Virus record (IMG/VR): IMGVR_UViG_3300027741_000029
Coordinates: 32,001-96,000 of that record
DNA: 64,000 bases
Reading direction: 5' to 3' (one strand)
Source: a virus
Shown: positions 1-20,548 of the stretch, one piece after another
How the letters are laid out: the number at the start of each line of letters is the position of its first letter
Numbering within the stretch: position 1 is the first letter of the stretch
The notes under the pieces: model-generated
What the model was told of the DNA's origin: nothing
Database searches by the model: none
The model's input: the letters and a program-made list of their open reading frames with translations, nothing else
Program-made: the position numbers and the translations under genes

Positions 1-2
1 CA

Positions 3-3000
3 GTAGAACAACTTGCACACATTAGCGATAAGGCGTTGGACGATGCATATCATTATGGGTTATCTACACCAGGTGCTAACTTTGGTTGGTTAGCAAATAT
101 TGAAAGTGCAACCGCTGCCAAGCGTATGATTGATAGTGGTATTACCGATGTAGATGCAATTGCCAACGCTATCCACGATGGTTGGAACAAGACCGCAATG
201 GCTGATTATATGGGCAAGTTGCAGTTAGATGCGCCTACAATTCCCGATAAGAAAAAGAAGCGTTATGCACTTGCCCAACAAACTTATGGTCAGTTGCCAG
301 AAGTAGAAAAAGAAAAAGACCGTGTAGTTGCTCGTGCTATGTTGAAGGCAATGGGTATCGTTACCGAAGCGCCAGGTATTGGTGGCGATTGGGGCGATAA
401 TCCTAAACTTGTAAAGCGTGGTAGAGCACCGTATAAACCAAACATAGACAATACCTATTATGGTTCTACGCACGGAGTTGATCTTGACCTATACGGTTTA
501 CCAAAGTATGAATTAGACGAAGACCTAACACCAGACCAATGGGCAGAGTTGCGCATTGCTGATCCAAAAGCCTATATGGGCAATAAGGATTATACTAATC
601 GTCGTTGGTGGACTCTACAGTTTAAGAAGGCTCGTGCTGCTGCTCGTGAGAAGGGTGCGCAACGCTTTGAGTTCCCACCAGGTTCCAAGAACAGTTATAT
701 GGTTGCACCTGACTTGGCAAACGAAGATACTGATCAACCAGATAGCAGCAACAATTCTGTTCGTAATCAGTTGAATGCTTGGATGGATCAAGACCAAAAA
801 ATTAAAAACCCAACACAGCGGTTGTCACTGCAGAATAAGGCTTGGCAATATATTACCAAAAATATGGATGCCATCCTTGCTGACAAAGGTGCGGATGGTA
901 AGGGAAGTTATCCTGCGGCACCATATGCGGCTTGGTTGCTAGTTCAACATATGGATGCTTATCCACAAAATCAAAGCAAGTTTCTACAACAACTGGAACA
1001 GTCAGGACTTGATCCTGCACCCAATCCTGGCGAAAAAGGAAAGTTACAGTTCTTAAAAGACCGTGTAGCAGTCAATAATGAAATTATAAAATTATGGAAT
1101 GCTGACAAGAATGCTTATAAAGATAAGAATGGACAATTACTTACTAATCCAACAGTAGATGTTCGTGATCCATCAAAGTTTGATGATGCTGATGAAAGTA
1201 AGATTGAAACATCTCGTAATGCGGCATTAAAAAATGCAGTAGAGGCTGGCAATACGCTACTTGTTGCCGCAGTAAATGCTACTAACGCACAAACACAACC
1301 ATCATACCAACAAGAAAGTGTAAGCGAAGGCAAAGTAACACTTTATACTGATCCAGATTATTTTGGTGCAGAAGTAGATGATAGTGGCTTTGATGCATTA
1401 CCGATCATCAATATTCCTACAAACAAACTTGTTGGGTTTGAACCCGATGATAAGATGAAATTACCAAAAGCCCAAGCAAATGTTGCGAAAATTATAGATG
1501 GTCTAGAGAAGAATGAAAATATACCACCTATTTTAGTTCGAAAATATAAGAGTGGTTATCAAGTATTAGATGGACATCATAGATTCTGGGCTTATAAAAC
1601 ACTTAAAAAAGATAGTATACCTGCACGATTAGTTCCTGATAGTGATATTGAAGAAATTAGCAAAAACAAAGTCAATGAAGCAGCAGATGGAACGCAACCT
1701 GAATATCTATGGCATGGTTCAAGAAATAAAATTCCTGTATTAAGCCCAAGACAAGCAGTTGATACTGGTGGTGCAACAGGTAGTAATAAAAATGCTATCT
1801 ATGCTACTGATAATAAAAATTTTGCTATTTTAATGGGTATGACAGAACCTAATAGTGATGTTGCTACTTTTCACACACCTGGCGAACCAATCCAAGGAGT
1901 TTTGTTTAGTGGTAAAATAAGACATGGGCAAAGTATGTATTTGCATATGTTGCCAACAAAAGATGCAGAAGGTAAAGATATTTTTATGCGTGGTTCTGCC
2001 GATGGCGAATATTATAGCAGACCAGATATTGAAGAATTAAAACCTTTAAAAATTATTGTTGTTCCAGTAGATGAACATTTGAATTTAATCAGAAAACCTA
2101 CAAAGAAAGATTTAGAATTACGACAATATTATCTTAATAGAGCAAACCAAAAACAAGAAAGCGTAAGCGAAGCCGCAGAAAAATCAACCAAAGCCGAGGC
2201 AAAGTATCAGGCAATGCCTCGCAATGGTCAACGCTGTGATCATTGCACTATGTGGCGACCACCACACGGTTGTTCGGCTGTTAGTGGCAAGATTGCGGCA
2301 AATGGTTGGTGTTCATATTATAAGCGCAGTCATCGTAAAGATTTAGAAGAAGACAGTGATAAAAGTGAAATCTTCAAATCATTAATTAAAAAATATCAAC
2401 TTGCTGGCAAAAGTGATGAAGAAGCACGAGACGCTGCTATAATTGATTTTGATAAAAGATTTGGTTGGCATAGAACGCTTACACCAGACCAATTAAAATC
2501 ATTAACGGGTGTAAAAAAATTAGAACTTGATGAGGCAGCATCACCAGTGTTGTTCCACTATACAGGTAGTTTGGGTGCAGCACTAAACATTCTTAAGAAC
2601 AATCAGTTTATGTTGAGCATTTCTACTGGTTCGGTAGAAGATCAGTATGCACCAAAAGGTTATGAGTATTTCCTATCTACAACACGCAGTAAGGCAGGCG
2701 GATATCATCAAATAGTTGGCGACACTGGCGTTATGTTTAACCTTGATGGCAATTGGTTTAATCGTCGTTATCCTGTGAAGGCAATTGATTATTGGGCAGG
2801 AATGTATAGAGGAGACCGTCATAGCGAAAGCGAAGACCGTGTATTCTCTCGTGAGCCATCTATGTCAGCAGATGCTATTACTGCTATTCATATCTTGTTA
2901 AAAGAAAAGGGTGAATATGCTAGTCCAAATACTCGTCAGTTGATGATTCTTGCCAAGAAGCGTGGCTTGCCAACCTATCTTTATAGTGATGAAAATGCTT

Positions 3001-5714
3001 GGAGATTACAAAATACTAAGCAAGCAGTACCAGTAAGTGGTGCTCAAGATTTACTGCGTGGTCAGAAGAAAACAGGTTATATCAGCAGCAGTAATTTTGG
3101 CAAGCGAATGTTAAGACCATGGTTAGAACTGATATTCAAGAAAAACCGCAGTGAGTTATCAAAGAAGGCAAATGAACTTCGCTATGGTTTAACATACTGG
3201 AACGGTGGTCAGTTTAGTGATGATCTTGGACTGCGTAATGAAATTTCAAATGCTCGTAAACCTGGTAGTAGTGGTTATCCAGAGGCTACTAAAATTATCG
3301 CAGCAATGCGCAAAATTGGTGCCAATAATGTAAAAGATTTACTAACATTCTTGCACAAGAAGTGGGATGCAGAAGCACAACAACCACTTAAAAGCGACAA
3401 TGATGCACAACGAGCAATTGCTAAAATCCGTGCCGATAGTGCTAAAAAAGAAAGTGTTGAAGAAGCACTTGATCCAAATGAAACACATGGTTGGATTTTG
3501 CCTAACCGCAAAGTTGTTTATGTTGAGAAGGAAGAACATCTGTCGTGGCTTTATAGTAATGACATTGATGGATATGAAGAAGCATTTACCCAAGGATATG
3601 TTCGTTTTGTAAATCTTCCCAATACATTTTTTCTAGAAGGAACATCAAGTGGTCTTAAAAAATTATACAGAGTATATGCAGCATCTGCACTATCAAGACC
3701 AAATATTGCCGTAGATGTTTATTATGGCAATAGAGGAAATGCAACTTCAAGTTATGATTTTACCATGCCACAAGAAAAAACAAAGTTTATGCGCTTACTT
3801 GGACCAAGTTCTGTTGGCGAACACGCTGGCAGCATTATTGGCACAGTAGGCGGCGGTAATGATTATCCTGACCGTCAGGTAGCCACTTTTCCATGGGACC
3901 GTTGGATACAGCCAGATACTGGCAACAGTAAATTAGCGTATGTTGATGACCTTGATGAAGTAAACATGAGTCCATCGGCTCTATCAAAGTTTGCTGCTAC
4001 TCCACAAGCACAGGCAATGACTATTGGTTTTGAAGCAGAAATGCTGGTGCCAGGTTTGGATTACGAAGATGAAGATGCAGACTATGGTGGTGTAAGCCGT
4101 GTGCAGTATGAGTTTCGCAGAGACCCAAGCAATTGGGATTTGAGTAAGGACGCTCCATTTCCAACTGAAAAAGATTGGGCTATACAAGTAGCAGCATGGG
4201 CAAGTAAAAGCGATATGCTTGATTCTGAGGATGTTGGCAATATTCGTGTTGAACTTCGTGATATAAACAAAAATTTTATCGCATATGTGGAAAAGAATAA
4301 AGATGTATCAACTGAAATAGTTAAACCAGAAAATTTAAAATGGATTGCTAATTACATTGACAAGAATACTGCGTGGATGTTAACTAAAAAAGAAATAAAA
4401 CAAGCAATCATAGATAACCCAAATGATTCCGATAGATATAGTGTTGTTTGGGACGCTCGCACAATCTTTATTGAAAAGATGCTAGAAGATTCAACACCAC
4501 AAGAATATGAAGAGTTATGGAAGGCTTATCTTAAAAGATATAATATTAAAAACATAAGTGATTGGTTTATGAGATGGGGACAACCACAAAATGATTATGT
4601 ATTTTACCCATACCTAAAAGGAACCCCACCACAAGACTCTACTGCGATAACCGTAAAAGAACTTGCCGTTAGTTGGAAGGCAGTGATTGGAGCAAATGTA
4701 AAGTATGGCGGTGGATATCATGGCATAAAGCGTGATGGCACTAGTTGGATTCTTGAGCCTGATAGCAGTATTAGTGGTGATGATAACGGTATTGAACTTA
4801 TATCACCGCCTATGCCGCTACAACAAGGCATGGCGGCACTTGATAAGTTCTTCCAATGGGCAGGTCAAAACGGATATTATGGCAATGAATCAACTGGATT
4901 CCATGTTGGTGTTAGCCTACCAGAAGAACTACAATCAAAAATTGACCCACTTAAAGTAGTAATGTTGCTTGGTGATCAATATGTGTTAGACCTATTTGAT
5001 CGTGGCAGCAATGAATATACCAAGAGCAGTCTTGGTGCAGTTCAAAAACTATTTAAATCACGCAGTAGTAATGTGCGACCAGAAGATTATGCTAAATTAT
5101 TGCGTAAAGATTTAGCAAGAACAGCACAAGCAATTGTCAATCGCACGATGAATGGCGGCAACAAGTATGTATCCGTTTATCTTAAATCTAATTATATTGA
5201 GTTCCGCAGTGCTGGCGGAAACTTTATGGAACACATAGACGATATCAAGAATACTGTGCTGCGTTATGTTCAGGTAATGGCAATTGCTGCTGATCCACAA
5301 GCATATCGTGAAGAATATGCCAAGAAACTTTATAAAGTGATTGCTAAAAATATTCCACGAGATGATGACCAACTGTCAAACTTTGCTATGTATGCCAGTG
5401 GTTTAATTGACCAAAATGTGTTGAAGATGCGTTTACAGAAGCGTCAGACCGATAAGGCAGATGCAGCAGCAAGAGCAGCATTTGTTGCTAGCACAAAGAT
5501 TTATAGAGTATGGCTTGGCGACCCACCATATGGTTCTAATCTCTCTGACCCAAAACGCTTTGCTACGCCAAGTGAAGCATATGCTTGGGCAAAATCTTAT
5601 GCAGTTCGTCTTTCAAGCACCTTTGATGCTAAAAGTTTATACTTAGAGCCAGATGATCATAGCATACCACCAATCGTGCTTGACCAACCTGCTTCTGGTC
5701 CATGGCTACAATAA
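3..5714 (+). CDS. Giant multidomain polyprotein, 5'-truncated, probable internal head protein (RyR-like, DUF6624-like, ParB-like, two ART-like, HiPIP-like, amidoligase domains)
   Basis: Frame is open from position 3 (VEQLAHISDKALDD...). Motifs: AAWLLVQHMD..FLKDRV; PPILV..VLDGHHR; LWHGS..IYAT; CDHC..C..GWC; FHYT..STTR..ESEDR; IGFEAE..EPDSS..ELISPP..TGFHV..IEFR. Domains are separated by xxE|A/G linkers. Confidence 0.8.
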   Translation, partial: VEQLAHISDKALDDAYHYGLSTPGANFGWLANIESATAAKRMIDSGITDVDAIANAIHDGWNKTAMADYMGKLQLDAPTIPDKKKKRYALAQQTYGQLPEVEKEKDRVVARAMLKAMGIVTEAPGIGGDWGDNPKLVKRGRAPYKPNIDNTYYGSTHGVDLDLYGLPKYELDEDLTPDQWAELRIADPKAYMGNKDYTNRRWWTLQFKKARAAAREKGAQRFEFPPGSKNSYMVAPDLANEDTDQPDSSNNSVRNQLNAWMDQDQKIKNPTQRLSLQNKAWQYITKNMDAILADKGADGKGSYPAAPYAAWLLVQHMDAYPQNQSKFLQQLEQSGLDPAPNPGEKGKLQFLKDRVAVNNEIIKLWNADKNAYKDKNGQLLTNPTVDVRDPSKFDDADESKIETSRNAALKNAVEAGNTLLVAAVNATNAQTQPSYQQESVSEGKVTLYTDPDYFGAEVDDSGFDALPIINIPTNKLVGFEPDDKMKLPKAQANVAKIIDGLEKNENIPPILVRKYKSGYQVLDGHHRFWAYKTLKKDSIPARLVPDSDIEEISKNKVNEAADGTQPEYLWHGSRNKIPVLSPRQAVDTGGATGSNKNAIYATDNKNFAILMGMTEPNSDVATFHTPGEPIQGVLFSGKIRHGQSMYLHMLPTKDAEGKDIFMRGSADGEYYSRPDIEELKPLKIIVVPVDEHLNLIRKPTKKDLELRQYYLNRANQKQESVSEAAEKSTKAEAKYQAMPRNGQRCDHCTMWRPPHGCSAVSGKIAANGWCSYYKRSHRKDLEEDSDKSEIFKSLIKKYQLAGKSDEEARDAAIIDFDKRFGWHRTLTPDQLKSLTGVKKLELDEAASPVLFHYTGSLGAALNILKNNQFMLSISTGSVEDQYAPKGYEYFLSTTRSKAGGYHQIVGDTGVMFNLDGNWFNRRYPVKAIDYWAGMYRGDRHSESEDRVFSREPSMSADAITAIHILLKEKGEYASPNTRQLMILAKKRGLPTYLYSDENAWRLQNTKQAVPVSGAQDLLRGQKKTGYISSSNFGKRMLRPWLELIFKKNRSELSKKANELRYGLTYWNGGQFSDDLGLRNEISNARKPGSSGYPEATKIIAAMRKIGANNVKDLLTFLHKKWDAEAQQPLKSDNDAQRAIAKIRADSAKKESVEEALDPNETHGWILPNRKVVYVEKEEHLSWLYSNDIDGYEEAFTQGYVRFVNLPNTFFLEGTSSGLKKLYRVYAASALSRPNIAVDVYYGNRGNATSSYDFTMPQEKTKFMRLLGPSSVGEHAGSIIGTVGGGNDYPDRQVATFPWDRWIQPDTGNSKLAYVDDLDEVNMSPSALSKFAATPQAQAMTIGFEAEMLVPGLDYEDEDADYGGVSRVQYEFRRDPSNWDLSKDAPFPTEKDWAIQVAAWASKSDMLDSEDVGNIRVELRDINKNFIAYVEKNKDVSTEIVKPENLKWIANYIDKNTAWMLTKKEIKQAIIDNPNDSDRYSVVWDARTIFIEKMLEDSTPQEYEELWKAYLKRYNIKNISDWFMRWGQPQNDYVFYPYLKGTPPQDSTAITVKELAVSWKAVIGANVKYGGGYHGIKRDGTSWILEPDSSISGDDNGIELISPPMPLQQGMAALDKFFQWAGQNGYYGNESTGFHVGVSLPEELQSKIDPLKVVMLLGDQYVLDLFDRGSNEYTKSSLGAVQKLFKSRSSNVRPEDYAKLLRKDLARTAQAIVNRTMNGGNKYVSVYLKSNYIEFRSAGGNFMEHIDDIKNTVLRYVQVMAIAADPQAYREEYAKKLYKVIAKNIPRDDDQLSNFAMYASGLIDQNVLKMRLQKRQTDKADAAARAAFVASTKIYRVWLGDPPYGSNLSDPKRFATPSEAYAWAKSYAVRLSSTFDAKSLYLEPDDHSIPPIVLDQPASGPWLQ

Positions 5715-5730: not shown

Positions 5731-8700
5731 ATGAAAAACAACAAAGACCTGATCCTTGAAGAAATCCTAAACGAAGTAAACATGAGTCCAGCAGCCCTTC
5801 GTGCGGCGGTGGCAAAGATTCCAAATGCAAAAGCAGGTTTAGAGTTTGAACTTATCGTCACTAATCTTGACGAAGAAGATGATGAAGATTATGATCCATA
5901 TGAGGATTTTGAATCCGAACCAGATTATGACCAAGATGAGCGTGTTTCTACCGCAAGTTTTGGTGCATTGTCGCAAGATGTTATGCAGTTCTTCGCTGGC
6001 GATCACAATAGTCGTCGTGAAGTAAATCGTGCGATTGATTTAATCCGTGAAGCATGGTATGAGTATTTGGATGGACCACTATGGGACACATGGGCAGGCG
6101 ACCGCATACAAGACTTTATTGACAAGCGTTATGGTCGTGATTATAAAAACCAGCAAGAACTGTTCAGTGAAATAGACAGAATTGATCCATATGAAGCGTT
6201 TAGAAAAGAATATTTTGAAGAATGGCGTGATAATATTGAAGATGATGATAATATTGACAGTTATCTTGAACAATTTTTAGAAGATACCTATGGTAACACT
6301 GCTATGAGTGGTTTGGCAAATGATAGCAGTCTTGGTCTATCTTGGCCAAACTGGACTGAACCTGATTATGATTACCGTCCAACTCGTTCTACGGTTGATG
6401 TAGGTGATTTCCGCCGTGCAACAGGTATAAGAACTATCAAGAGCGGCTCTTATCACGGCATTGCAAAGCCAAACGATGCATATGTTATTGAACCAGATAG
6501 CAGCCTATCACCTACTCGTGGCAAAGGCGGCGAAGGTTTAGAGTTTGTATCACCACCGCTAGATATTCCAACAATGATTGACCAAATCAATAAGGTCAAG
6601 GCGTGGGCAAAAGATGGCAATGCTTATACCAATGATAAAACTGGTTTGCATATGAATATTAGTATACCAGGTTATAAGTTAGACAAACTTGATTATGTTA
6701 AACTTGCACTATTTTTAGGTGACAAGTATATTTTAGAAAAGTTTGGTCGTCTTGGCAATTCTTATGCTCGCAGTGCTTTTGACCAGATTGCTTCATTCAT
6801 TAAACAAAATCCAGGCAAGGCAGACCAAGCCGTAGATGCTATGCGTAAGAACTTGAATACGGTTGCATCCAAACTTATTCATAATGGTTATACTGATAAA
6901 TTCACCTCTATCAATACAAAAGATAACCGTGTAGAGTTTCGTTCACCAGGCGGTAATTGGATTGATATGGATACTGATGAAGTAGTGAATACGCTGCTTC
7001 GTGTTGTATATGCTATGAACATTGCTCTGCATCCAGAAATGGAACGCAAAGAATATCAAAAGAAATTTGCAAAACTACTTACTGCTGATAAAAAAGACGA
7101 AACCGATACTATCAAGTATTTTACACAGTTTGCTACTGGAAATATGCCTCGCACAGCACTTGTAAGTTATATTAAAAATGCACAAAGCAAGCGTGATTTT
7201 GCCAAGAAAGCAAAAGCACCGCAACCAAATGTTGTTGGTGGTGACGATGATGATACACCGTATGTAGATTACGATGGGATTGGTGGTATTACATTTCAGA
7301 TTATCAGTCGTATAACTGGCAACCCATGGCAATCATTTGTAGTATCTCCAAGAATGACTTACAGTGATGTATATGATATTGCCACACGCATAGTGCGAGC
7401 AAGTGGTCGTTCATTTGACCTAGTAGCGTTAAGAGATACTCGTGATCGTGATGGTCAAGCAGATGATATTCTAACACGCCAACCATTATCAATTGGCGGT
7501 GATCGAACTGTATCATCTATTCAACCTATGTATGTTATCCGCACATCAAACAATCAAATGGCGGTTACACAGTTTCGTGCGCCAGATAATGAGCAAGCAC
7601 GAGACATTGCTACTCGTTTAACAAGAGAATATGGCTATCGTGATATTGATTGGTTCTTGTCCCTTGCAAACGATGATACGAATACACCAATACCTGGTGC
7701 AGGTACACAGGCACTACAATTGCCCCAAGCAGCAGCGCAACCACCTCGCCAATATTCACAAATAGAAATTGATCGTGGTTATGATATTGCGGGCAATGCT
7801 ATTCCAGCAAATGCAACCGCCACATCTTCTAACATTACTGCTACAAATGGCACAACATATAATATTTTGGATAGTGAAAGTCGTGTTGTTCATACATTTA
7901 ACGCTGCAAGTGTAACTGGTGCTCGTCGTTATGCTGTAAGTTATGCCGAGGAACATAATTTGGCAGCACCTTGGCAATTGGCAGAAGTTCCAAATAGAGA
8001 CGAAAGCCTTGAAGAAAGTATCCTAAACGAAATCAATATGAGTCCTACATCTCTTGAAAAGTTTGCCGATACACCATTTGCCAAGAGTATGAAGGTTGGT
8101 TTTGAAACCGAAATGTATATTCCTGGGCTTGGCGGTGAAGAAGGCGAAGAGGAAGAAGAAGAGGATATGGATGCAAACGAAGAGTTTCCAAGCAGCGCAT
8201 CCTATCGTGATCGTCAGCGTGATGTTATGAACTTCTTTACTGGTGGTAGTGATATCAATACCCGCAGTGATGTTGAAAGTGCATTAGAATCGTTCTATGA
8301 AGCATTTAGTGAATACCAATATGAAACCTATGATAATGAATTTGAAGGCACTGATGATTACAATGACGCAGTTCAAGAAGAATTAGGCGATACTCCTGCG
8401 GACGAAGCAAGTGAGCGAGAACTTGATGATGCCAAAGATAATGTTCGCACCAATTGGATGGAAGAAAACGAAGAATATACTTGGGGCAGATTCATAAGTC
8501 GCAATAGCATTGATGATATGTATGACTTTATGCGTTGGGTAAATCGCAATACTCGTGAATCGCTATCTTGGCCATATTATACATTTAGCAGCAGTAGAGA
8601 AGAACCAACAACAGACATTGGCGATGTTGTAGATGATTTTAGACGCAATACTGGTTATAAGGCACGAGCAAGCGGCGGTTATCACGGAGCAACTCGTGAT

Positions 8701-10395
8701 GAAACAACTTGGATATTTGAACCAGATAGTTCGCTAGATAGTCCAAATGATGATGGCGATGGCGGTATTGAACTTGTATCACCTCCAATGAACCTAGAAG
8801 ATGCGCTGGCTGCGTTAGAGAATGTATTCAGTTGGGCAAAAAGCAATGATTATTATACTAACCGCACAACTGGTTTCCATATTGGTGTTAGTATCCCTAA
8901 CCAAACCTTAGAAAACATTGACCATCTTAAATTGATTATGTTGCTTGGCGATGAGTATGTGCTTAAAGCATTTGGTCGTGCTGGTTCTCGTTGGACAAAG
9001 AGTAGTTTTGACCAAGCAAAGCGTGAAGTGCGTGGCAGAAGTGGCAGAAAGAATGTGCCAGCAATCCTTGATAAGATGCGTGGTGGATTGGAAGATATTG
9101 CCAAAAAAGAAATCAATAAACTGTTGGTTCCTCGTGGCGACCGTTATGTTAGCGTGAATATTAAGCCAAACTATATTGAGTTCCGCAGTGCTGGTGGCAA
9201 TTACTTTGAGCAATATGAAGAAATTCGCAAGACTATGTTGCGCTATGTTCGTGTTATGGGAGCAGCCGCTGATACCGAAGATGCTCGTCAAGAATATCAA
9301 AAGAAACTGTATAAGTTTGTAAGCGGTGGCATTAGTGAAAAAGATAACACGATGCAACTGTTTGCCAAATATACTGCTGGCGCTATTGACAAAGAACAAC
9401 TTGTAAAAGAATTACGCACTGCTCAAGAGCGTCGTAAGCCTGTTGCACCACTTGGCAGTGGTCCAGTTGATGGTTTCTTGGAAAATGAAGACGGCGAGCA
9501 AGTTGTAAAAATCAAGGGAACTAACCCATATGAAATGATTGAACTTGGTGTAAAGTTTGCTAACACTCGCCAAATGCCATTGAGCGATGTCAACCTACGT
9601 TATCCTGGTTATAGTATGGTTCGTGTTCAATATTATACTACACATAACACTGAAACAGATAGTATAACACTGGTTTATATACCTGGCGTTGATTTATACA
9701 GTGCATACAGCAGTGAAATAACAAAGATGGCTGTTCCTGTTGCAGAAAAGCACTGGGGCGTAAGTAAATTACCAATAGAACGTTATGCTGTGCGAGTGTT
9801 AGATGAGTATTCACTACAATATATGCGTGATGAAATGTATTTTATTACATCTCGTGGTATAGACCGTGCACCATCACTGCCACCAACAGCACAATCAACA
9901 GATGCTGCGCCTGGCAATAATCAAACTGCTCAACGATATATTTTAAAATATACAGATAACGGCGAAGAAGTTTATAGATTTGGTGCGTCTACTCAACGAG
10001 ATGCAATAGACCGTGCCAATAGTTTCCAACGATCATATAGCAGTGTAATGCGCTGGGGCGGCACAATTGGTAATATTCGTGGTATTGCGCTATATTCAAT
10101 TGCGCCAAATACTGATGAACAAGAATTGTTCTATATGGGACCAGGCGAGGCTATTGTAAATCAACCTGCTTCTGGAACGCCAGATTGGGCAGATGATCCT
10201 AACATTGCTGTAACCAATAATACACCTAGAATTAGAAATCCTGGTGGCAGTGGCACGTATGCATTGTATAGTGGCGATGGTGAGCAGTTAACGGATGCAG
10301 CAGCATTCAATAACTATCAAAATGCGACAAGTTATTTTACAATTAATTATAGTAGTTCGTTGGGAACTGGTTGGACCGTAAGACAACTATCGTAA
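5731..10395 (+). CDS. Tandem double putative amidoligase (COOH-NH2 ligase, PF12224-like) polyprotein with acidic inserts and small C-terminal repeats
   Basis: Two complete motif sets: GLEFE/EPDSS/EFVSPP/TGLHM/VEFRS and GFETE/EPDSS/ELVSPP/TGFHI/IEFRS. Each is preceded by ILNE(V/I)NMSP. Confidence 0.8.
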   Translation: MKNNKDLILEEILNEVNMSPAALRAAVAKIPNAKAGLEFELIVTNLDEEDDEDYDPYEDFESEPDYDQDERVSTASFGALSQDVMQFFAGDHNSRREVNRAIDLIREAWYEYLDGPLWDTWAGDRIQDFIDKRYGRDYKNQQELFSEIDRIDPYEAFRKEYFEEWRDNIEDDDNIDSYLEQFLEDTYGNTAMSGLANDSSLGLSWPNWTEPDYDYRPTRSTVDVGDFRRATGIRTIKSGSYHGIAKPNDAYVIEPDSSLSPTRGKGGEGLEFVSPPLDIPTMIDQINKVKAWAKDGNAYTNDKTGLHMNISIPGYKLDKLDYVKLALFLGDKYILEKFGRLGNSYARSAFDQIASFIKQNPGKADQAVDAMRKNLNTVASKLIHNGYTDKFTSINTKDNRVEFRSPGGNWIDMDTDEVVNTLLRVVYAMNIALHPEMERKEYQKKFAKLLTADKKDETDTIKYFTQFATGNMPRTALVSYIKNAQSKRDFAKKAKAPQPNVVGGDDDDTPYVDYDGIGGITFQIISRITGNPWQSFVVSPRMTYSDVYDIATRIVRASGRSFDLVALRDTRDRDGQADDILTRQPLSIGGDRTVSSIQPMYVIRTSNNQMAVTQFRAPDNEQARDIATRLTREYGYRDIDWFLSLANDDTNTPIPGAGTQALQLPQAAAQPPRQYSQIEIDRGYDIAGNAIPANATATSSNITATNGTTYNILDSESRVVHTFNAASVTGARRYAVSYAEEHNLAAPWQLAEVPNRDESLEESILNEINMSPTSLEKFADTPFAKSMKVGFETEMYIPGLGGEEGEEEEEEDMDANEEFPSSASYRDRQRDVMNFFTGGSDINTRSDVESALESFYEAFSEYQYETYDNEFEGTDDYNDAVQEELGDTPADEASERELDDAKDNVRTNWMEENEEYTWGRFISRNSIDDMYDFMRWVNRNTRESLSWPYYTFSSSREEPTTDIGDVVDDFRRNTGYKARASGGYHGATRDETTWIFEPDSSLDSPNDDGDGGIELVSPPMNLEDALAALENVFSWAKSNDYYTNRTTGFHIGVSIPNQTLENIDHLKLIMLLGDEYVLKAFGRAGSRWTKSSFDQAKREVRGRSGRKNVPAILDKMRGGLEDIAKKEINKLLVPRGDRYVSVNIKPNYIEFRSAGGNYFEQYEEIRKTMLRYVRVMGAAADTEDARQEYQKKLYKFVSGGISEKDNTMQLFAKYTAGAIDKEQLVKELRTAQERRKPVAPLGSGPVDGFLENEDGEQVVKIKGTNPYEMIELGVKFANTRQMPLSDVNLRYPGYSMVRVQYYTTHNTETDSITLVYIPGVDLYSAYSSEITKMAVPVAEKHWGVSKLPIERYAVRVLDEYSLQYMRDEMYFITSRGIDRAPSLPPTAQSTDAAPGNNQTAQRYILKYTDNGEEVYRFGASTQRDAIDRANSFQRSYSSVMRWGGTIGNIRGIALYSIAPNTDEQELFYMGPGEAIVNQPASGTPDWADDPNIAVTNNTPRIRNPGGSGTYALYSGDGEQLTDAAAFNNYQNATSYFTINYSSSLGTGWTVRQLS

Positions 10396-12524: not shown

Positions 12525-14336
12525 ATGAAACAAGACATTGCAGAAATGAGAAAATTATCAGGACTTCCTTTATACGAAGCAGCAGAGTTTAATCCTTTAC
12601 TAGAAAGTTGGACTACTGTTGGTCGTGCAATTAGTGAAGCAAAGTTAAGTCCTGAGCAAGTTGCTGCAATATTTGGTTCAGTTGAACAGGGCGCACGTGC
12701 AAGTGGAACAAATCGCACTGCAATTGGTAAAGGTGCGGATGCAGTAGGTTCTGCTGCTGGCGCTGCTGCTGGTGCTTATAGTAATATTTCTTCTGCAGTA
12801 AACAATGCATATCAGGGTATCGTTGCTAAAATTGGTCAACTTGGACCAGTTAAAAACTTTGATGATGCTTTTGATAGCATGGCAAGTAAACTTAAAAGTG
12901 CAACAGGCGGAGACGAAGGTATTGCCAAGTATGTATATGCTTATCGTGCATTTGCTAAAAACCATCCTGTATTACAAAATTTAATATATGGTGCTTTAGT
13001 TGCTGGCGTTGGTTTAGCAACTAGTGGTGTTGGTCCGCTTGTTGTTTTAGGTTTGTTTAAAGCTACTGATCGTTTGCTTCAGGGTGACAGATTGAGTGCA
13101 GCATTGATTAAAGCTGGTGTAACTGTAGGTAAGGCTGTAATCGGTCGTGAATTACAAGATTATTTATCAGGTAAAACACCACAAGTTCCATCTGCTGCTC
13201 AACAACAAGGTATGGGTGGTCGTGGTTTACCCGATGACTCAAGTCGAGCAATTCCAAATTATGATCAGCAACAAGGAATGTTAGGTCGAGGTATTCAACC
13301 ACCCAAAGGACCATCATTGCCTACAGGTGCAAATCCAGGCGATATTGCAACTGGTGGATTTGGTGCGGCTACGAATGCTGCAGGTTTAGATATTGGATCG
13401 GTTGTCCAAATAAGACCAGGTGATAACATATATAATATTTTAAAAAGAGCGTTTGATAATAATACACTTAATGTTGATCCGTCTAAGAATTGGCCAGAAG
13501 TATCTAAAATGATAGCACAGGCAAACCCACAAATAACAGATTTAAATAAAGTTTTTCCTGGTCAACGTTTGGGCATTCCAGATGTTTTGTTATATAGACC
13601 ATCACTAGGTAATCGTTTAGGCGATAGTATTGAAAGGCAAAATCAAAAAAATATCAGTGAATACATTGATAGAGAAGCAACCATTAACAGTTGGTTCTTA
13701 AGTGAAGGTGTTCTTGATGATGGTAGCCGCAGCGTTTGGGTATATGAAACCGCAGTTCCTGTTATCTTCCAACAAATTGAAGAAGCAGGTTTTTTCCAAG
13801 GTCTTAAGGACATTGGTAGTTCAATTGGTAAAGGTATTGGAAGTGCGGCTAGTGCAGTTGGTAATTATGTAGGCACAGCGGCAAGTAATATTGCTAACAA
13901 AACTACTGCTGATAAGCTAAACACGGCTTGGCAGAAATCCACATATAGTCAGGGTAGTGGCAGTGTTGATAGTAAAACCGTTGTGCAGTTTCTACGTCAA
14001 ATGGGTGTAGAAGATGCGATAATTAAGTCTACCTTTAAGAACATGAAAATACCATTTCCTCGTGGTCCACGCAAGCCAAAAACAGTAGCACCACAAGCAG
14101 CAGCACCACAAGCAGCACCACAAGCAGCAGCGGCTAAGCCAAAAGTGCGTGTGCCCGCTGGTAGTAAACCATCCACTCCATTTAAAGGGTTTGGAGGTGC
14201 ATTACAATCAGCGCCAGAAAGCGTAAGCAATCAAGATATCATGCGTATGATTAGCGAAGCTAAAAATCTAGCACAGCAAGCAGCAATCGCTATCAATATG
14301 AAGAAGCGTGGAAAAAAACCAAAAGGCAAAAAATAA
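12525..14336 (+). CDS. Probable virion protein with LysM domain and hydrophobic helical region
   Basis: QIRPGDNIYNI...ANPQITDLNKVFPGQRLGIP is LysM-like; hydrophobic LIYGALVAGVGLATSGVGPLVVLGLF; several xxE|A sites. Confidence 0.7.
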   Translation: MKQDIAEMRKLSGLPLYEAAEFNPLLESWTTVGRAISEAKLSPEQVAAIFGSVEQGARASGTNRTAIGKGADAVGSAAGAAAGAYSNISSAVNNAYQGIVAKIGQLGPVKNFDDAFDSMASKLKSATGGDEGIAKYVYAYRAFAKNHPVLQNLIYGALVAGVGLATSGVGPLVVLGLFKATDRLLQGDRLSAALIKAGVTVGKAVIGRELQDYLSGKTPQVPSAAQQQGMGGRGLPDDSSRAIPNYDQQQGMLGRGIQPPKGPSLPTGANPGDIATGGFGAATNAAGLDIGSVVQIRPGDNIYNILKRAFDNNTLNVDPSKNWPEVSKMIAQANPQITDLNKVFPGQRLGIPDVLLYRPSLGNRLGDSIERQNQKNISEYIDREATINSWFLSEGVLDDGSRSVWVYETAVPVIFQQIEEAGFFQGLKDIGSSIGKGIGSAASAVGNYVGTAASNIANKTTADKLNTAWQKSTYSQGSGSVDSKTVVQFLRQMGVEDAIIKSTFKNMKIPFPRGPRKPKTVAPQAAAPQAAPQAAAAKPKVRVPAGSKPSTPFKGFGGALQSAPESVSNQDIMRMISEAKNLAQQAAIAINMKKRGKKPKGKK

Positions 14337-14863
14337 TGCGTATCGGTCAAATCACCAACGAAGCAGATAAGACTGATACCGTTAGTATGGATATCCCACT
14401 ATTACTTCGTATGATGGAATATGCTCGTGAAGATGCCAAGACTGATCTAGACTTGCATGATGTTGCTGAAAAGATGATTGAACTATCCAAGCATCATGAT
14501 TATCTGTGCATGGACAATTATAATGAAATCGTTGGCAGTGCTGGACATGATGACGTAGAAGAGTCCAATGCTTTCACTGATGCAAGAATGAATGCTATAA
14601 AGGCAGGTAAAAAATCATTCAATGTTGGTGGCAAAACATATCCCGTTACTGGTGATACAACGGATGAATTAGAAGCAGTTGAAGAAAGTTGCCCACACTG
14701 TGGTGGATTAATGTATGAAGCAAGTCTTATGAATGAGAAGAAAGATGCTTGCTATTATAAAGTAAAGAGCCGTTATAAAGTATGGCCAAGTGCTTATGCG
14801 AGTGGTGCGTTAGTTAAATGTCGCAAGGCAGGTGCTAAAAACTGGGGAAATAAATCCAAATGA
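14336..14863 (+). CDS. Probable internal head protein
   Basis: Leader MRIGQITNE|A; C-terminal basic module KKDACYYKVKSRYKVWPSAYASGALVKCRK typical of T4-like phage head proteins. Confidence 0.65.
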   Translation: MRIGQITNEADKTDTVSMDIPLLLRMMEYAREDAKTDLDLHDVAEKMIELSKHHDYLCMDNYNEIVGSAGHDDVEESNAFTDARMNAIKAGKKSFNVGGKTYPVTGDTTDELEAVEESCPHCGGLMYEASLMNEKKDACYYKVKSRYKVWPSAYASGALVKCRKAGAKNWGNKSK

Positions 14864-15261
14864 GCGACATGGATTTAAGATATTTCATCAATAAAATGGA
14901 TGCTATTATACTTGGTGAAGAATCAAAAGATGAAACCAAAGATAGTGGTGAAGTTAAAGTTGGAAAGTACCAAACACGACATTTTGATATGTGTCCAAGT
15001 GCTACAAAGCTATATAAAAACATTAGTGATAAAAATGTTGATATGGGTATAGCAGAACGCACTGCTAAAATGCAAGATTTACTTTTTTATCTTGAAAAAT
15101 ATGCTAATGAACGTGGTAGTATTGAACCAGAATTTGCAACAATGGCAGAAGTCCTTGGCGAGCAAATTATGAATATGGCAAGCATGATGGATTTGTATGA
15201 TGAACATCATTATATTATGGATACGCATGTAAAAGCAATTAAGGATTTAGTAAAGTCATGA
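14860..15261 (+). CDS. Hypothetical protein, probable head-associated
   Basis: Leader MSDMDLRYFINKMDAIILGEE; ATGA overlap with previous gene. Confidence 0.6.
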   Translation: MSDMDLRYFINKMDAIILGEESKDETKDSGEVKVGKYQTRHFDMCPSATKLYKNISDKNVDMGIAERTAKMQDLLFYLEKYANERGSIEPEFATMAEVLGEQIMNMASMMDLYDEHHYIMDTHVKAIKDLVKS

Positions 15262-15740
15262 AAATGGAAGATGTTCTTGGCGAAGCATGTTGGGCAGGCT
15301 ATCACAAAGAAGGCATGAAAACAATGTTTGGAAAAAAATATCCAAACTGTGTCAAGAATAAAAAGAAACGTAGCGAAAGCACAGAACTTAAATGTGACCC
15401 GATTACAGAAAGTGTGCTGCTTGAACAAGTTGATTATTGTATGCACTGCGGAAATCTTGTATTACCAGAAGCCAAGGGTAATCTACACAAGTGGTTCAAA
15501 GACAAGTGGGTTAACATCGGTAAAAAAGTAGGTGGCAAACATCCACCGTGCGGCACAAGTGGCAGCAAGAGTGGTTATGCTAAATGTGTACCAGCAGCCA
15601 AAGCACGTAGTATGAGTGCATCAGAAAAACGTAGTGCAACAACTCGCAAACGCAAAGCACAAAATGCAGCAGGTCGTGGTGGTAAAGATACAGGTGGTAA
15701 TGGCAAGGCACCAATTCGTGTAAGCACCAAAGCCAAATAA
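15258..15740 (+). CDS. Probable internal head protein with basic Cys-containing modules
   Basis: Leader MKMEDVLGE|A; modules CWAGY..GMK..GK.YPNCVK and LHKWFKDKWV..CG..KCVP. Confidence 0.65.
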   Translation: MKMEDVLGEACWAGYHKEGMKTMFGKKYPNCVKNKKKRSESTELKCDPITESVLLEQVDYCMHCGNLVLPEAKGNLHKWFKDKWVNIGKKVGGKHPPCGTSGSKSGYAKCVPAAKARSMSASEKRSATTRKRKAQNAAGRGGKDTGGNGKAPIRVSTKAK

Positions 15741-15762
15741 ATAATATATTAGGATTTATAAC

Positions 15763-16734
15763 ATGAGTGATATGCGTTCTTTAATTGAAAAACTTACTGC
15801 CATTAGTGAAGACCGTCCAACAATCGGTGATGGTGTATATTTGGAGTTTGGCAACATTCTACAAGTAGATACTGAGATTATGGAAATGAGTGAAGACAGT
15901 ATTACAATACTTGGTGATGAAAAATTATTTAAAGTTCTTGAAAGTTTAAATGAAATTGAAAGTCGTCCAGTTCGTAAAATTACAGAAAATGCACAGACAG
16001 TAAGAGATGCACTAATAAAAGGATTTAATACAAAACAATTCTCTGGTGATCGTTCTGCCGCAGTACATATTATGGATATTAAACCAGATGGAACTATTGT
16101 GGTAGATCGTCGAGAAAGTATTCAAGATGTACGCTACATGTTAATGAAAGGTGGTTTACCTGGTGTAAAAGTTGTTGCAGCAGTAGAAAAGTGGAATCAA
16201 CCAACACCACCTGAGCAAAAACCATCAATTGTTCAACAAGTGTTAAAAGCAATAGGTATTGGCGAAAGCGTAACAGAAGGTGAAGTAGTTTCCTTACAAG
16301 ATAATCACCAAACACTAAAACGTTTGGCAAAGATGTGGTGGCACGGTGATGAAGGCAAGCATGCACAAGCTGTAAAAATGTTGGGCAATATGGGTTGGGA
16401 TATTGCAGAAGATGATGATGATATTGTTCTTAATAAAGATGGTAAGGAAATTCGCTTCTTTATGGATGATTTATATGAATCAATCGTAGCAGAAGCAGAA
16501 TATCATGGTCGTAAAGTTCAATTGAATAAACCCCATAGAGGGGATGTTAAAAAATTTGCTGTCTTCGTTAAAGACCCTAAAACAGGCAATGTAAAAAAGG
16601 TAAACTTCGGAGACCCAAATATGAGGATTAAAAAGTCAAATCCAAAACGCCGTAAGAGTTTCCGTGCTAGACACCACTGTGAGAATCCAGGTCCACGCAC
16701 AAAGGCAAGATATTGGTCTTGCCGTAAGTGGTGA
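15763..16734 (+). CDS. Probable internal head protein with C-terminal basic module (DUF6321-like)
   Basis: Leader MSDMRSLIEKLTAISE; VAE|AEYHGRKV..KVNFGDPNM..RRKSFRARH.C..ARYWSCRKW. Confidence 0.7.
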   Translation: MSDMRSLIEKLTAISEDRPTIGDGVYLEFGNILQVDTEIMEMSEDSITILGDEKLFKVLESLNEIESRPVRKITENAQTVRDALIKGFNTKQFSGDRSAAVHIMDIKPDGTIVVDRRESIQDVRYMLMKGGLPGVKVVAAVEKWNQPTPPEQKPSIVQQVLKAIGIGESVTEGEVVSLQDNHQTLKRLAKMWWHGDEGKHAQAVKMLGNMGWDIAEDDDDIVLNKDGKEIRFFMDDLYESIVAEAEYHGRKVQLNKPHRGDVKKFAVFVKDPKTGNVKKVNFGDPNMRIKKSNPKRRKSFRARHHCENPGPRTKARYWSCRKW

Positions 16735-16739
16735 TTTGA

Positions 16740-17372
16740 ATGTTATTAACAGAATTATTTGACCTTGATGAAGCCGCTGGTGTAGGTTTAGTTCGATTTA
16801 CTGGTAATACAATATTTGAAAGATTTGAACAGCATAAGAAAGATGCTTTGAAAATTCGTGACAATAGAAAATTTTATAATGCTATAAACAAGCATGGAGT
16901 TGATGTATGGAATATAGAATTATTAGAATCGGTTGAATCCGCAGAAATTGCCAAACAAAAAGAAATAGAATTTATAGAAAAATTTGATACCTATTATAAT
17001 GGATATAATTCTACAAAAGGTGGCGATGGCAATAATGGCATAATTATGTCAGAAGAGTCAAATGCAAAAAGAAGTAAAGCATTAAAAGGTATTGCTAAAA
17101 ATTATACAAGAATGCATGGTAAAATTCATTCAGAAGAATCTAAAAAGAAAATATCTGAATCACATAAGGGTAAGAAAAAACCTTGGGTAAAATGGGAAAA
17201 ATCTATTATAGAGAAACGGGCGATGACTCGTCGTGGCTTAACAAAGGAACAATTTGATTCCATCCATTTGTTAAAAAATGAAGGTTTAACAGCAAGAGAA
17301 ATATCAACCAACCTAAATTTATCACGGGATATGGTTAAAAAATGGTCCCTTAAAGAATGGGACTTCATGTAA
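16740..17372 (+). CDS. N-terminally truncated GIY-YIG/NUMOD3 endonuclease fused to a duplicated 16-codon leader
   Basis: ERFEQH..YNAINKHG..E..EIEFI..GYNSTKGGDG plus NUMOD3-like HSEESKKKISESHKG; the GIY/YIG tyrosines are absent. Confidence 0.75.
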   Translation: MLLTELFDLDEAAGVGLVRFTGNTIFERFEQHKKDALKIRDNRKFYNAINKHGVDVWNIELLESVESAEIAKQKEIEFIEKFDTYYNGYNSTKGGDGNNGIIMSEESNAKRSKALKGIAKNYTRMHGKIHSEESKKKISESHKGKKKPWVKWEKSIIEKRAMTRRGLTKEQFDSIHLLKNEGLTAREISTNLNLSRDMVKKWSLKEWDFM

Positions 17373-17419
17373 TGTTATTAACTGAATTATTTGACCTTGA
17401 TGAAGCCGCTGGTGTAGGT
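16740..17419 (+). repeat. 48-bp direct repeat (16740-16787 and 17372-17419) flanking the endonuclease
   Basis: ATGTTATTAAC(A/T)GAATTATTTGACCTTGATGAAGCCGCTGGTGTAGGT, one synonymous mismatch, encodes MLLTELFDLDEAAGVG. Confidence 0.95.
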
Positions 17420-17581
17420 GTAGTTCCTCCTACTAAGAAGGCTGCAAAAGACCCTCGTTATGCTAATGCGCTGACAGTTGATATTCATCCAGGCGAAACA
17501 CAAAAGCAAGCAGCAAAATTTGGCAATAAGACCGATAAAATTGGTCGCCCACCTATTATGAGTCCAAGTGGTAAGGTTTAA
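17372..17581 (+). CDS. Small probable internal head protein
   Basis: Starts MLLTELFDLDE|AAGVGVV at a TAATG overlap. Confidence 0.7.
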   Translation: MLLTELFDLDEAAGVGVVPPTKKAAKDPRYANALTVDIHPGETQKQAAKFGNKTDKIGRPPIMSPSGKV

Positions 17582-18672
17582 TGACTCAATTTACTGATAC
17601 ATTCTGTCGGCGTGCATTTACAGATTTAGTATTTGATTCTGGCATAATTAAACCTTGTTGTTATTTTTTATCAAATTTTACTAAAAAATTTCAAGATATT
17701 GAATCATCAAATCTGCAAGTTAGACAATATATCAAAGATAATAAATGGCACCCAGGCTGTGATAACTGTAAAAAAACCGAAAAAGACGGCAATAAAAAAA
17801 GTCATAGGTTGAATCACAAATATGATGATTTTGATTATGAATTATTTTATGAGAATAAATTTTCATTAAAAAATTTAGAGATTAGAGTTGACAATAATTG
17901 CAATATTGCTTGCATTACTTGTTTTAGTGATAGTAGTTCTCGTTGGTCTGCTGAATTAAAAAGAATGGGCGAACATGACCCATGTAAAAATAAAGTAAAC
18001 ACTGATATAGACAAACTTTTGACTTATGAAATTTGGAAAAATGTCGAAAAACTTACGATATATGGTGGTGAACCAATGTATAGTAAAAAAGTAGAAAAAA
18101 TACTATCATGGGCTGTAGAAAATAATTTAAGTGAAAAGATTGATGTACATTTTTTCAGCAATGGTACTATTATAAACAAAAATATTATTGATAAATTTGA
18201 AAGATTCAAATCAATTAATATTGGTTTTAGTATTGACGGAACATTTGACAGATACCATATTATAAGATGGCCAGCCAATTGGAATGAAACATTGGAAAAT
18301 TTTAATAAATTAAAATTAATGCCAAATGTTAATCTGTATATTATCTACACCTATAGTGTATTAAATGCTTACAATACCAAAGAAGATTTAGAAATTTTAA
18401 ATGAGTATTTTAATTGTCCTATTGTTCCTAATTTATTAATAAATCCATCATATTATGCCGCAAGAAATTTGCCAGAATCAATAAAGGAAAAATTAATAGA
18501 TCACTTAATTACGGTTCCTGAATTTTCATATCTCATAGCTGAATTACAACAACCAAGCAATGAGAAAGAATTAAAACAAGCTATCGAACGTGTTAAAAAA
18601 TTAGATAATTTTAGAAATACTGATAGTAGTATACTATTTGCATCAGAAGTATGGTCAATAGCCGATAAATAA
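17581..18672 (+). CDS. Radical SAM protein with N-terminal auxiliary Cys domain
   Basis: CNIACITC motif, GGEP; N-terminal FC..F/PCC/CDNC. Confidence 0.85.
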   Translation: MTQFTDTFCRRAFTDLVFDSGIIKPCCYFLSNFTKKFQDIESSNLQVRQYIKDNKWHPGCDNCKKTEKDGNKKSHRLNHKYDDFDYELFYENKFSLKNLEIRVDNNCNIACITCFSDSSSRWSAELKRMGEHDPCKNKVNTDIDKLLTYEIWKNVEKLTIYGGEPMYSKKVEKILSWAVENNLSEKIDVHFFSNGTIINKNIIDKFERFKSINIGFSIDGTFDRYHIIRWPANWNETLENFNKLKLMPNVNLYIIYTYSVLNAYNTKEDLEILNEYFNCPIVPNLLINPSYYAARNLPESIKEKLIDHLITVPEFSYLIAELQQPSNEKELKQAIERVKKLDNFRNTDSSILFASEVWSIADK

Positions 18673-20278: not shown

Positions 20279-20548
20279 ATGGCAACCAGAAACTTTAGTG
20301 CAGAGGAACGCACGAAACTTAAACAATTGATGAGCGAAAGTATTTCAGTAATGACTGAGGTTGAAGTACTAACAGGCGGTCTTAACGATACCATTAGTGC
20401 AATTGCAGAAGAAATGAACATCAAGCCAAATCTACTTAAGAAGGCAATCAAGATGGCACAGAAGCGTGACTTTGATAAGGCTCGTGAAGACCTTGACATC
20501 ATTGAAAGCATTCTTAACAGCACAAACAACTTGGATAGCGAACAATAA
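20279..20548 (+). CDS. Small dsDNA-binding protein (T4 DsbA/GapR-like)
   Basis: 89-aa helical protein ..LNDTISAIAEEMNIKPNLLKKAIKMAQK.., directly upstream of the polymerase. Confidence 0.5.
   Translation: MATRNFSAEERTKLKQLMSESISVMTEVEVLTGGLNDTISAIAEEMNIKPNLLKKAIKMAQKRDFDKAREDLDIIESILNSTNNLDSEQ

Follow-up and report, generated by a model that had tools for sequence, protein, structure and literature searches.

A 64,000-nucleotide stretch of viral DNA (IMG/VR virus record IMGVR_UViG_3300027741_000029, positions 32,001 to 96,000; hereafter the window, numbered from its first letter) opens with two adjacent genes, each of which joins enzyme-like modules into one long polypeptide. The best-supported reading of these genes, and in our judgment a probable one, is that they encode capsid cargo polyproteins processed by the prohead protease, with cleavage, packaging and ejection being inferred. 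This reading is supported by hydrophobic-x-Glu motifs that sit at independently located module junctions, by a Peptidase_S77 (S77) prohead protease encoded in relatives, by leaders that resemble the capsid targeting sequence (CTS) of phage T4, and by gp196, a homolog of one module that is listed among the virion proteins of a cultured phage. Each of the computational tests able to refute this reading turned out in its favor. The design is recurrent in environmental jumbo phages of the T4 superfamily.

In gene content, the window matches a jumbo phage of the T4 superfamily. Its family-B DNA polymerase (20548..23208) shares 45-49% identity with its counterparts in Sinorhizobium phage Phosso, Agrobacterium phage Atu_ph07, Vibrio phage 2.275.O and Serratia phage BF, and a DNA-level comparison with the phage collection returned no near-identical cultured-phage record for the window. 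Judged by its DNA polymerase sequence, the source is most likely an uncultured, Rak2/Atu_ph07-like jumbo phage of this superfamily.

Two adjacent genes encode chains of modules

Gene 1 (P0001) had been predicted to be one open reading frame (ORF) holding many unrelated modules. The frame is indeed uninterrupted, and the unit is larger than had been proposed, with a further module upstream and a second polyprotein gene downstream (Table 1). The frame runs off the 5' end of the window, and the full protein is therefore longer than 1903 residues. A scan of IMG/VR yielded 28 loci related to the window polyprotein, whose first ORFs encode 975-2851 amino acids and always extend upstream of the window sequence by 209-272 residues. 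This upstream part holds a short leader, typically M-T-L-S-H-R-T-I-F-N-E↓A (arrows mark predicted cuts), followed by a cytidylyl/adenylyltransferase-like (NMNAT-like) module with HxGH and TSATNAR motifs (Pfam CTP_transf_like, E 8e-4; NCBIfam cyt_tran_rel, 2.5e-3). The NMNAT-like module comes first in every relative with a visible N-terminus, and the upstream part ends ...ESVEE↓SIITE↓SLS directly before the first residues of the window.

Within the window, 11 junction sites divide the gene 1 product into 12 segments of 46-584 residues (M1 to M12). Their coordinates agree closely with those of the approximately 11 modules in the original prediction, the count in the window part now being 12. A HiPIP-type module and a large module with an ADP-ribosyltransferase (ART) fold, M9, are near-universal in the architecture table of the relatives, and all other modules are variable. 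The window version has the richest architecture: M6 and M8 occur in none of the other loci, and M4 is found there only as partial copies.

Gene 2 (P0002, 1554 aa) starts 16 bases past the gene 1 stop codon. Its leader is conserved in relatives and runs straight into the start of the first amidoligase module (MKNNKDLILE↓EILNE↓VNMSP). The two genes form one fused ORF in L016 (2851 aa) and in L013, and gene 1 of L005 and L012 stops shortly past M11. By eye, the tails behind the amidoligase cores (~7200-7990, 9450-10390 and 5450-5711) appear to contain multiple copies of a ~35-residue motif (Y-x-[IV]-x ... then a short helix), with no cut sites between copies.

Table 1 Coordinates of the two polyprotein genes, their modules and sites, and leader-bearing genes downstream. 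Sites are given as residue of the gene 1 product/last base of the Glu codon (a, quoted in the original prediction; b, additional junction site).
Feature	Nucleotides	Residues	Strand	Site at C-terminal end	Remarks
Gene 1 (P0001)	3..5714	1-1903	+		Single open frame, 1903 codons, 5' end off window edge
M1, RyR-like	3..368	1-122	+	VTE↓A, 122/368 (a)	Ends IVTE↓A; Pfam RyR (PF02026) E 8e-4, 20 bits, below cut-off 27.4
M2, 51 aa	369..521	123-173	+	LDE↓D, 173/521 (b)	Ends ELDE↓D
M3, 68 aa	522..725	174-241	+	ANE↓D, 241/725 (b)	Ends LANE↓D; same end precedes three different modules in relatives
M4, 201 aa	726..1328	242-442	+	VSE↓G, 442/1328 (a)	Ends ESVSE↓G; 33 homologs of similar length
M5, ParB/Srx-like, 117 aa	1329..1679	443-559	+	VNE↓A, 559/1679 (a)	Ends KVNE↓A; DGHHR motif
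M6, ART fold (model), 164 aa	1680..2171	560-723	+	VSE↓A, 723/2171 (a)	Ends ESVSE↓A
M7, HiPIP-type iron-sulfur, 60 aa	2172..2351	724-783	+	LEE↓D, 783/2351 (b)	Ends DLEE↓D
M8, 61 aa	2352..2534	784-844	+	LDE↓A, 844/2534 (a)	Ends LELDE↓A
M9, N-terminal ART fold (model) and helical C-terminal half, 310 aa	2535..3464	845-1154	+	VEE↓A, 1154/3464 (a)	Ends ESVEE↓A
M10, 119 aa	3465..3821	1155-1273	+	VGE↓H, 1273/3821 (b)	Ends SVGE↓H
M11, 46 aa	3822..3959	1274-1319	+	LDE↓V, 1319/3959 (a)	Ends DLDE↓V; conserved in relatives
M12, amidoligase-like with C-terminal tail, 584 aa	3960..5714	1320-1903	+		Starts VNMSP
Gene 2 (P0002)	5731..10395	1-1554	+		
Gene 2 leader	5731..5775		+		MKNNKDLILE↓EILNE↓V; conserved in relatives; resembles T4 CTS MKTYQEFIAE; N-terminus of P0002: MKNNKDLILEEILNE
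Gene 2 body	5776..10395		+		Pfam Amidoligase_2 2e-11, two stretches
Gene 2 amidoligase module A with tail		16-752	+		Amidoligase_2
Gene 2 triple site		753-767	+		QLAE↓..SLEE↓SILNE↓ (motif listing)
Gene 2 amidoligase module B with tail		768-1554	+		Amidoligase_2
Downstream gene leader	12525		+		MKQDIAE↓ (translation); candidate further cargo
Downstream gene leader	14336		+		MRIGQITNE↓A (translation); candidate further cargo
Downstream gene leader	15258		+		MKMEDVLGE↓A (translation); candidate further cargo
Downstream gene leader	15763		+		MSDMRSLIE↓K, internal ESVTE↓G and SIVAE↓A (translation); candidate further cargo
Downstream gene leaders	16740 and 17372		+		MLLTELFDLDE↓A (translation); candidate further cargo

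Hydrophobic-x-Glu sites coincide with module junctions

All seven motifs quoted in the original prediction are present in gene 1, and four more junction sites were found. Module boundaries were located independently of the motif, as the positions where homology to relatives starts or stops. Across 25 polyproteins these homology breakpoints peak exactly at [LIVM]xE, with 51 at distance 0 as compared to 5.8 expected, and 211 of the 384 internal breakpoints fall within 5 residues of such a motif. Gene 1 itself has 16 break clusters, of which 8 fall no more than 3 residues from a site (permutation p~3e-4 over all 16); among the 9 clusters with at least two endpoints, 7 do. The motif is also depleted inside the gene 1 modules (10 observed vs 18.8 expected, P=0.008), and 13 other window proteins examined as a control show no such depletion (95 observed vs 75 expected). 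The proposed coincidence of domain boundaries with motifs is thereby borne out. An enrichment of linker motifs relative to shuffled sequence, suggested earlier as a check, is seen in placement and not in total number: the whole gene 1 product contains 20 motifs, not above the 21 of shuffled sequences, but they are placed at junctions and are rare inside modules, so it is their placement that is non-random. Synonymous codons differ between copies of a site, with LDE written as TTA GAC GAA, CTT GAT GAG or CTT GAT GAA, which points to a constraint on the peptide rather than on the DNA.

The relatives were expected to gain and lose modules at the linkers, and in 15 or more related metagenomic phages segments are gained, lost or swapped exactly at E↓ positions. 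The end ...DLANE↓ continues as M4 in the window, as the ParB-like module in L001 and as the HiPIP module in L005, and the end of the HiPIP module, ...KRSHRKDL[DE]E↓, has at least seven different continuations. M1 is present or absent as a whole unit. M2 behaves as an independent cassette, occurring without M1 in L016 and missing between M1 and M3 in L004. M4 is absent from most relatives; L018, L027 and L010 match its first part only, and none has it complete. The place of M8 is taken by other inserts (55-201 aa) or by short spacers (TELDE↓, SENLDE↓), and such spacers, NLDE↓ included, form double sites in relatives. In L004, M10 is gone exactly between two sites, and the resulting junction reads KKESVGE↓HAGS.

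Module families and folds

Both of the earlier ART-like calls are upheld by AlphaFold models, in which M6 and M9 adopt ART folds; their catalytic competence is putative. M6 is modeled with a pLDDT of 92.4, and ADP-ribosyltransferases make up nearly all of its 50 best structural matches, at modest Z scores (best 7.6; rmsd 2.6, 83 aligned). Conserved H-G-S and Y-A-T strands in M6 provide putative active-site residues by sequence, and DUF6886 matches 13 of 33 M6 homologs. In the M9 model (pLDDT 87.6), module residues 1-160 match Tpt1 with a Z of 11.6 (rmsd 2.2, 109 aligned) and DarT with Z of 10.3 and 9.9, and Foldseek returned DarT at 1e-3. M9 residues H8 and E98/E100/D101 are invariant or nearly so, as read from the alignment. 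For neither module did the searches detect a match to any ART family at sequence level. Alignments of M6 and a profile search with M9 against PDB sequences gave nothing useful, and the ESM Atlas returned only sub-threshold unnamed clusters for M6.

The HiPIP assignment is firm for M7 as an isolated module (Pfam HIPIP, PF01355; 28.4 bits, above the cut-off of 22), which has four cysteines arranged C-x2-C ... C ... C and matches the NCBIfam iron oxidase Iro at 7.5e-8. M12 is kept as amidoligase-like. It scores 21.0 bits with Pfam Amidoligase_2 (PF12224), just under the cut-off of 22, and 1e-11 with phrog_33777, and it is 33-35% identical (E ~1e-77) to both paralogous modules of gene 2, which score 44.6 bits. 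Two labels are retained in part. M5 has its DGHHR motif and matches PHROG ParB-like families down to 3e-6 and NCBIfam parB_part at 1e-4, with a Pfam ParB_N score (PF02195; 22.7 bits, E 1e-4) below the cut-off of 26.3; the RyR-like label of M1 keeps a weak Pfam match that is also below its cut-off (Table 1). The DUF6624-like label given to M4 is not sustained. M4 has no Pfam match, with DUF6624 not listed at E<=1 for this copy and not found at E<=0.1 in any of 19 family members (this copy and 18 homologs). M4 thus has no detectable family and the label is unsupported. A profile search of M4 against PDB sequences returned no match, and the ESM Atlas no usable match. No peptidase family was found in either polyprotein ORF with Pfam, PHROGs or NCBIfam. 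Cultured jumbo phages also have modules in the form of individual genes, Lu11_0206 and JA13_139 being two examples.

T4-like leaders start about half of the module homologs

In T4, the protease gp21 cleaves after Glu in (L/I)-x-E, and a protein of any kind fused to the 10-residue CTS MKTYQEFIAE is carried into the prohead and loses the CTS afterwards; Alt, a packaged ADP-ribosyltransferase, undergoes trimming at ITE-6 and LTE-619 (PMC9026906, PMC5694885, PMC8442874). A CTS-like leader was present in 135 of 284 homolog proteins of M4, M6 and M9, a count made up of stand-alone M4 and M9 proteins together with M6 proteins of either kind, single-module or longer chain. M9 has 242 stand-alone homologs of ~290 aa, 120 of which are listed. 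Most of the M9 leaders listed in full follow M-[RK]-x-x-E-[FIL]-[IL]-x-E↓ (for example M-R-A-N-E-F-L-T-E↓, M-K-I-N-E-I-L-T-E↓ and M-R-A-Q-E-F-I-T-E↓A-I-L-G-E↓), and these leaders directly precede the first strand of the ART fold. Stand-alone M4 proteins begin MRAREFLLE↓.

Homologs of M6 form 145 representative clusters and are found at any position in proteins of 85-1670 aa. An [LIVMA]xE site lies within 14 residues upstream of 71 of the 75 internal M6 copies (background 21%), with the consensus Q-G-V-A-E↓G, and examples show that many M6-containing chains begin with the same CTS-like leader. Two-module intermediates were also observed (P0007, P0057 and P0098), such as a leader followed by an ASCH or GNAT domain, LDE↓ and an ART module. 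Together, the single-module, two-module and long-chain forms make a graded series, from single cargo proteins in the T4 style up to chains of over 13 modules.

A different leader was seen in Pseudomonas phage Lu11 (L033; JQ768459.1, 156980-163007), where at least six adjacent genes share MKIQLAVA (one as MRIQLAVA, one as MKIQLALA). Several of these genes encode homologs of the M9 ART-fold module, and the leader has no Glu. This could be another, lineage-specific tag for targeting or processing the same family of cargo.

Relatives encode a gp21-type protease, and one module family is virion-associated

Two polyprotein-carrying relatives, G001 and G002 (contigs of 111 and 117 kb, which CheckV puts at about one third of a genome), encode Peptidase_S77 (PF03420, gp21-type) at 90-92 bits, in G001 at L031:7940-8566 (minus strand). 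The protease is part of a head module in T4 order: portal, acidic core-like protein, S77 protease, scaffold and major capsid protein. The acidic core-like protein begins MRSQYEQLIE↓. The scaffold of the relatives contains 27 [LIVM]xE sites vs 11.0 expected (P<0.001), and the protease itself 9 vs 4.1 expected, as anticipated if this lineage keeps the T4 cleavage specificity. Motif density is 1.05% in the polyprotein as compared to 7.4% in the scaffold.

Two other genes of the relatives were noted. Directly downstream of the G001 major capsid gene is a 1561-aa ORF (L031:524-5209, minus strand) that has no PHROG match, is Gly/Thr-rich by eye and contains 9 [LIVM]xE sites vs 4.2 expected. In most relatives, ~6 kb upstream of the polyprotein, a conserved 744-aa double AAA+ protein of ClpA/ClpB type is encoded (L012:2992-5226; domains Clp_N, AAA, AAA_lid_9, AAA_2 and ClpB_D2-small). 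Its PHROG name is 'ATP-dependent protease', and it was considered and rejected as the processing enzyme, being a ClpA/B-type unfoldase without a protease domain.

The cultured phage Atu_ph07 encodes a 500-aa protein with 30% identity to M12 (E 5e-24). The gene for this homolog lies two genes from the portal gene, and the protein has a 13-residue leader ending KLTE↓, in register with the LDE↓VNMSP junction of the window. Gene order and exact mass (57.93 kDa) identify the homolog as gp196, which the published Atu_ph07 virion proteome includes with 14 unique peptides and 30.2% coverage (PMC6102473, Table S5). This listing shows virion association of one module family and says nothing on cleavage. 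Published virion data for RsoM2USA comprise the ten major bands only and are uninformative on its amidoligase homolog.

Upstream element and downstream genes

A conserved perfect palindrome, CCAGATAAATATTTTATCTGG, is found 25 nt before the gene 1 ATG in 13 of 15 relatives. Its core, ATAAATA, is strongly avoided in the window (9 vs 29.6 expected), and the copies that remain are mostly 15-45 nt upstream of start codons; TAAATA is also often found at this distance before starts, those of likely structural genes included. The palindrome fits a T4-like late promoter, a weak argument to which we give little weight: the window lacks any exact copy of the T4 late-promoter octamer, TATAAATA (0 vs 7.9 expected), and in G001 the head genes have no ATAAATA upstream, only looser TAAATA variants. 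The element could act as a promoter or operator, or form an RNA hairpin.

Downstream of gene 2, further genes begin with similar short leaders that end in Glu and are candidates for additional cargo (Table 1). The genes at 12525..17581 have no informative families except DUF5872 (weak) and NUMOD3. The NUMOD3 homing-endonuclease-like ORF (16740..17372) shares its first 16 residues (MLLTELFDLDEAAGVG) with the small gene at ~17372, and it looks as if the endonuclease gene was inserted just behind a leader that was then duplicated. A radical SAM protein (17581-18672; phrog_14086, E 2e-16) is encoded directly behind this leader-bearing gene cluster.

Discussion

If the two genes encode prohead-processed cargo, both would be made late, and a short N-terminal leader of the T4 capsid-targeting type would draw each chain into the core of the assembling prohead. 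The activated gp21-type protease would then cut after Glu in hydrophobic-x-Glu sites exposed between folded modules. Gene 1 would give ~13 free proteins (NMNAT-like, RyR-like, ParB-like, two ART-fold, HiPIP, amidoligase and several others) and gene 2 at least two amidoligase proteins. The freed proteins would remain inside the head beside the packaged DNA and reach the host together with it, in the manner of T4 Alt and the internal proteins, and the same sites would double as evolutionary joints at which modules are inserted, deleted or exchanged.

Several observations weigh against this scheme. The prohead protease is absent from the 64-kb window, as judged by tblastn with the protease of the relatives and its neighbors, and in G001 and G002 the polyprotein lies ~90 kb from the protease and head module, outside the head gene cluster. 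The gene 1 leader of the relatives (MTLSHRTIFNE↓A) has F or L at P3 and bears little likeness to M-R-A-x-E-F-I-x-E, L025 has no gene 1 leader, and that of the window phage falls beyond the 5' edge. In gene 2, which has few junctions, the association of sites with junctions is not significant. AlphaFold models of M9 and M6 place the sites against C-terminal helices and not in long disordered linkers, which makes site accessibility an assumption, and a site conserved with its module could simply be part of the domain. The Atu_ph07 proteome was obtained from a PEG-purified stock (PMC6102473).

Some of these points would suit a polyvalent protein that is never cut at the joints. The giant chain would be delivered intact or processed by an unrecognized embedded peptidase, with the joints serving as domain ends and favored recombination points. 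Proteins with 2-15 domains, ART and ParB-like domains included, are an established class (PMC5512222); the sites travel with their modules, the crossover of the L004 deletion falls inside two ESV-x-E motifs, and the segments with no assigned fold (M2, M3, M4, M8, M10 and M11) could hide a peptidase. We nonetheless regard this explanation as unlikely. The searches with Pfam, PHROGs and NCBIfam found no peptidase family, and the same motif ends the leaders of stand-alone homologs, where an inter-domain joint is impossible. The motif is also avoided inside modules, the differing site codons leave little DNA microhomology to favor recombination, and a folded chain of 240 kDa would be hard to pass through a tail tube.

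Gene location and leader speak for a polyprotein that would stay in the cytoplasm of the infected cell, where the same or another Glu-specific protease would cut it and so yield many enzymes from one late message. The polyprotein gene has nucleotide-metabolism and replication genes as neighbors rather than head genes, its gene 1 leader is atypical and is missing in L025, and NMNAT-like, amidoligase and HiPIP activities could serve intracellular metabolism. Proteases of the T4 prohead type, however, are active only inside the prohead, as established for T4. The leaders of gene 2 and of the stand-alone homologs match the T4 CTS, Atu_ph07 gp196 is virion-associated, and no other protease was seen near the genes, the 744-aa unfoldase upstream having no protease domain; we consider cytoplasmic processing very improbable. 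It is still harder to credit a structural or scaffolding part of the head interior, of inner-body or core type, whose enzyme-like domains would be inactive relics that are cut and largely expelled at maturation. Cuts at many x-x-E sites are known for T4 core proteins and for inner-body proteins of the phiKZ type, and catalysis by the ART-fold modules is a suggestion from modeled fold and conserved residues. But the motif density of the polyprotein is far below that of the scaffold, the modules are globular and well folded, with conserved residues of putative active sites (M6 H-G-S and Y-A-T; M9 E98/E100/D101), and content varies highly between close relatives in a manner unlike a structural component, making this explanation extremely unlikely.

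Among known systems, the prohead-processed cargo polyprotein is most like T4's IPI, IPII and IPIII internal proteins and Alt, with which it shares a short N-terminal leader ending in hydrophobic-x-Glu, the same prohead protease family (S77, here from related contigs) and a highly variable, non-essential-looking cargo set; like Alt, it would contain an ART-fold enzyme flanked by cut sites. By this analogy the design would work as those proteins do, the difference being the concatenation of many unrelated enzymes. T4 cargo comes from separate genes whose products are cut once or twice, whereas here ~13 unrelated modules are concatenated, with a dozen predicted internal cuts. Several enzyme types (NMNAT-like, HiPIP, amidoligase and ParB-like) are not known from T4 heads.

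Polyvalent proteins (Iyer et al. 2017; PMC5512222) likewise hold many unrelated conflict-type domains, ART and ParB-like among them, in one extensively shuffled polypeptide that is predicted to accompany the DNA into the host and be split up into individual units. Gene 1 has this combination of multiple unrelated effector-type domains, with 12 segments that include two ART folds by model, a ParB-like module, a HiPIP and an amidoligase. Release of polyvalent proteins is predicted to depend on embedded zincin-like (MPTase) or other peptidases, often with MuF/portal-associated domains (PMC5512222). No such embedded domain was found here with Pfam, PHROGs or NCBIfam, and the joints instead fit a prohead protease acting in trans and a T4-type leader.

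In phiKZ, 201phi2-1 and SPN3US, a gp21-related protease recognizes a three-residue motif in head, inner-body and ejection proteins and cuts behind its Glu, and some packaged proteins of phiKZ-like phages are cut at several sites, with the fragments kept in the head and ejected. The motif there is S/A/G-x-E as compared to L/I/V-x-E here, and the substrates are paralogous structural or ejection proteins of a different phage lineage rather than chains of unrelated enzymes. The polyproteins that eukaryotic RNA viruses and retroviruses make are also single products cut by a viral protease at short consensus sites, in retroviruses inside the assembled particle, as is predicted here. Their proteases and domains are unrelated, and they form the replication or structural core, unlike the accessory cargo of a tailed double-stranded DNA phage. 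Full-text literature searches combining capsid targeting with polyprotein, and prohead protease with polyprotein in jumbo phages, did not find the design described.

A broader proposal, which we advance tentatively and rate at somewhat below an even chance, is that jumbo phages of the T4 superfamily have a widespread, undescribed way of arming their capsids, either by a portable ~9-residue leader or by splicing at prohead-protease sites, the site being both processing signal and evolutionary joint. In the window phage, the NMNAT-like enzyme and two ART-fold enzymes could then form a self-supplied NAD/ADP-ribosylation kit that is injected ahead of gene expression, possibly against NAD-depleting or nucleic-acid-targeting defenses. 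What each enzyme does in the host is inferred.

If the prohead-processed cargo polyprotein is confirmed, tailed phages would use a polyprotein strategy so far tied to RNA viruses and retroviruses, and would load into the capsid, in a fixed ratio, a dozen enzymes that work ahead of all phage gene expression. The T4 internal-protein paradigm would grow from a handful of small proteins to big arsenals whose content is quickly reshuffled, and the computationally defined polyvalent proteins would gain a defined means of release in trans. One of these modules occurs, in different chains, in more than 100 representative clusters, and the design would account for many unannotated giant ORFs of environmental jumbo phages. 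Its grammar of leader plus joint would also offer a ready design rule for multi-cargo protein delivery on existing T4 packaging platforms.

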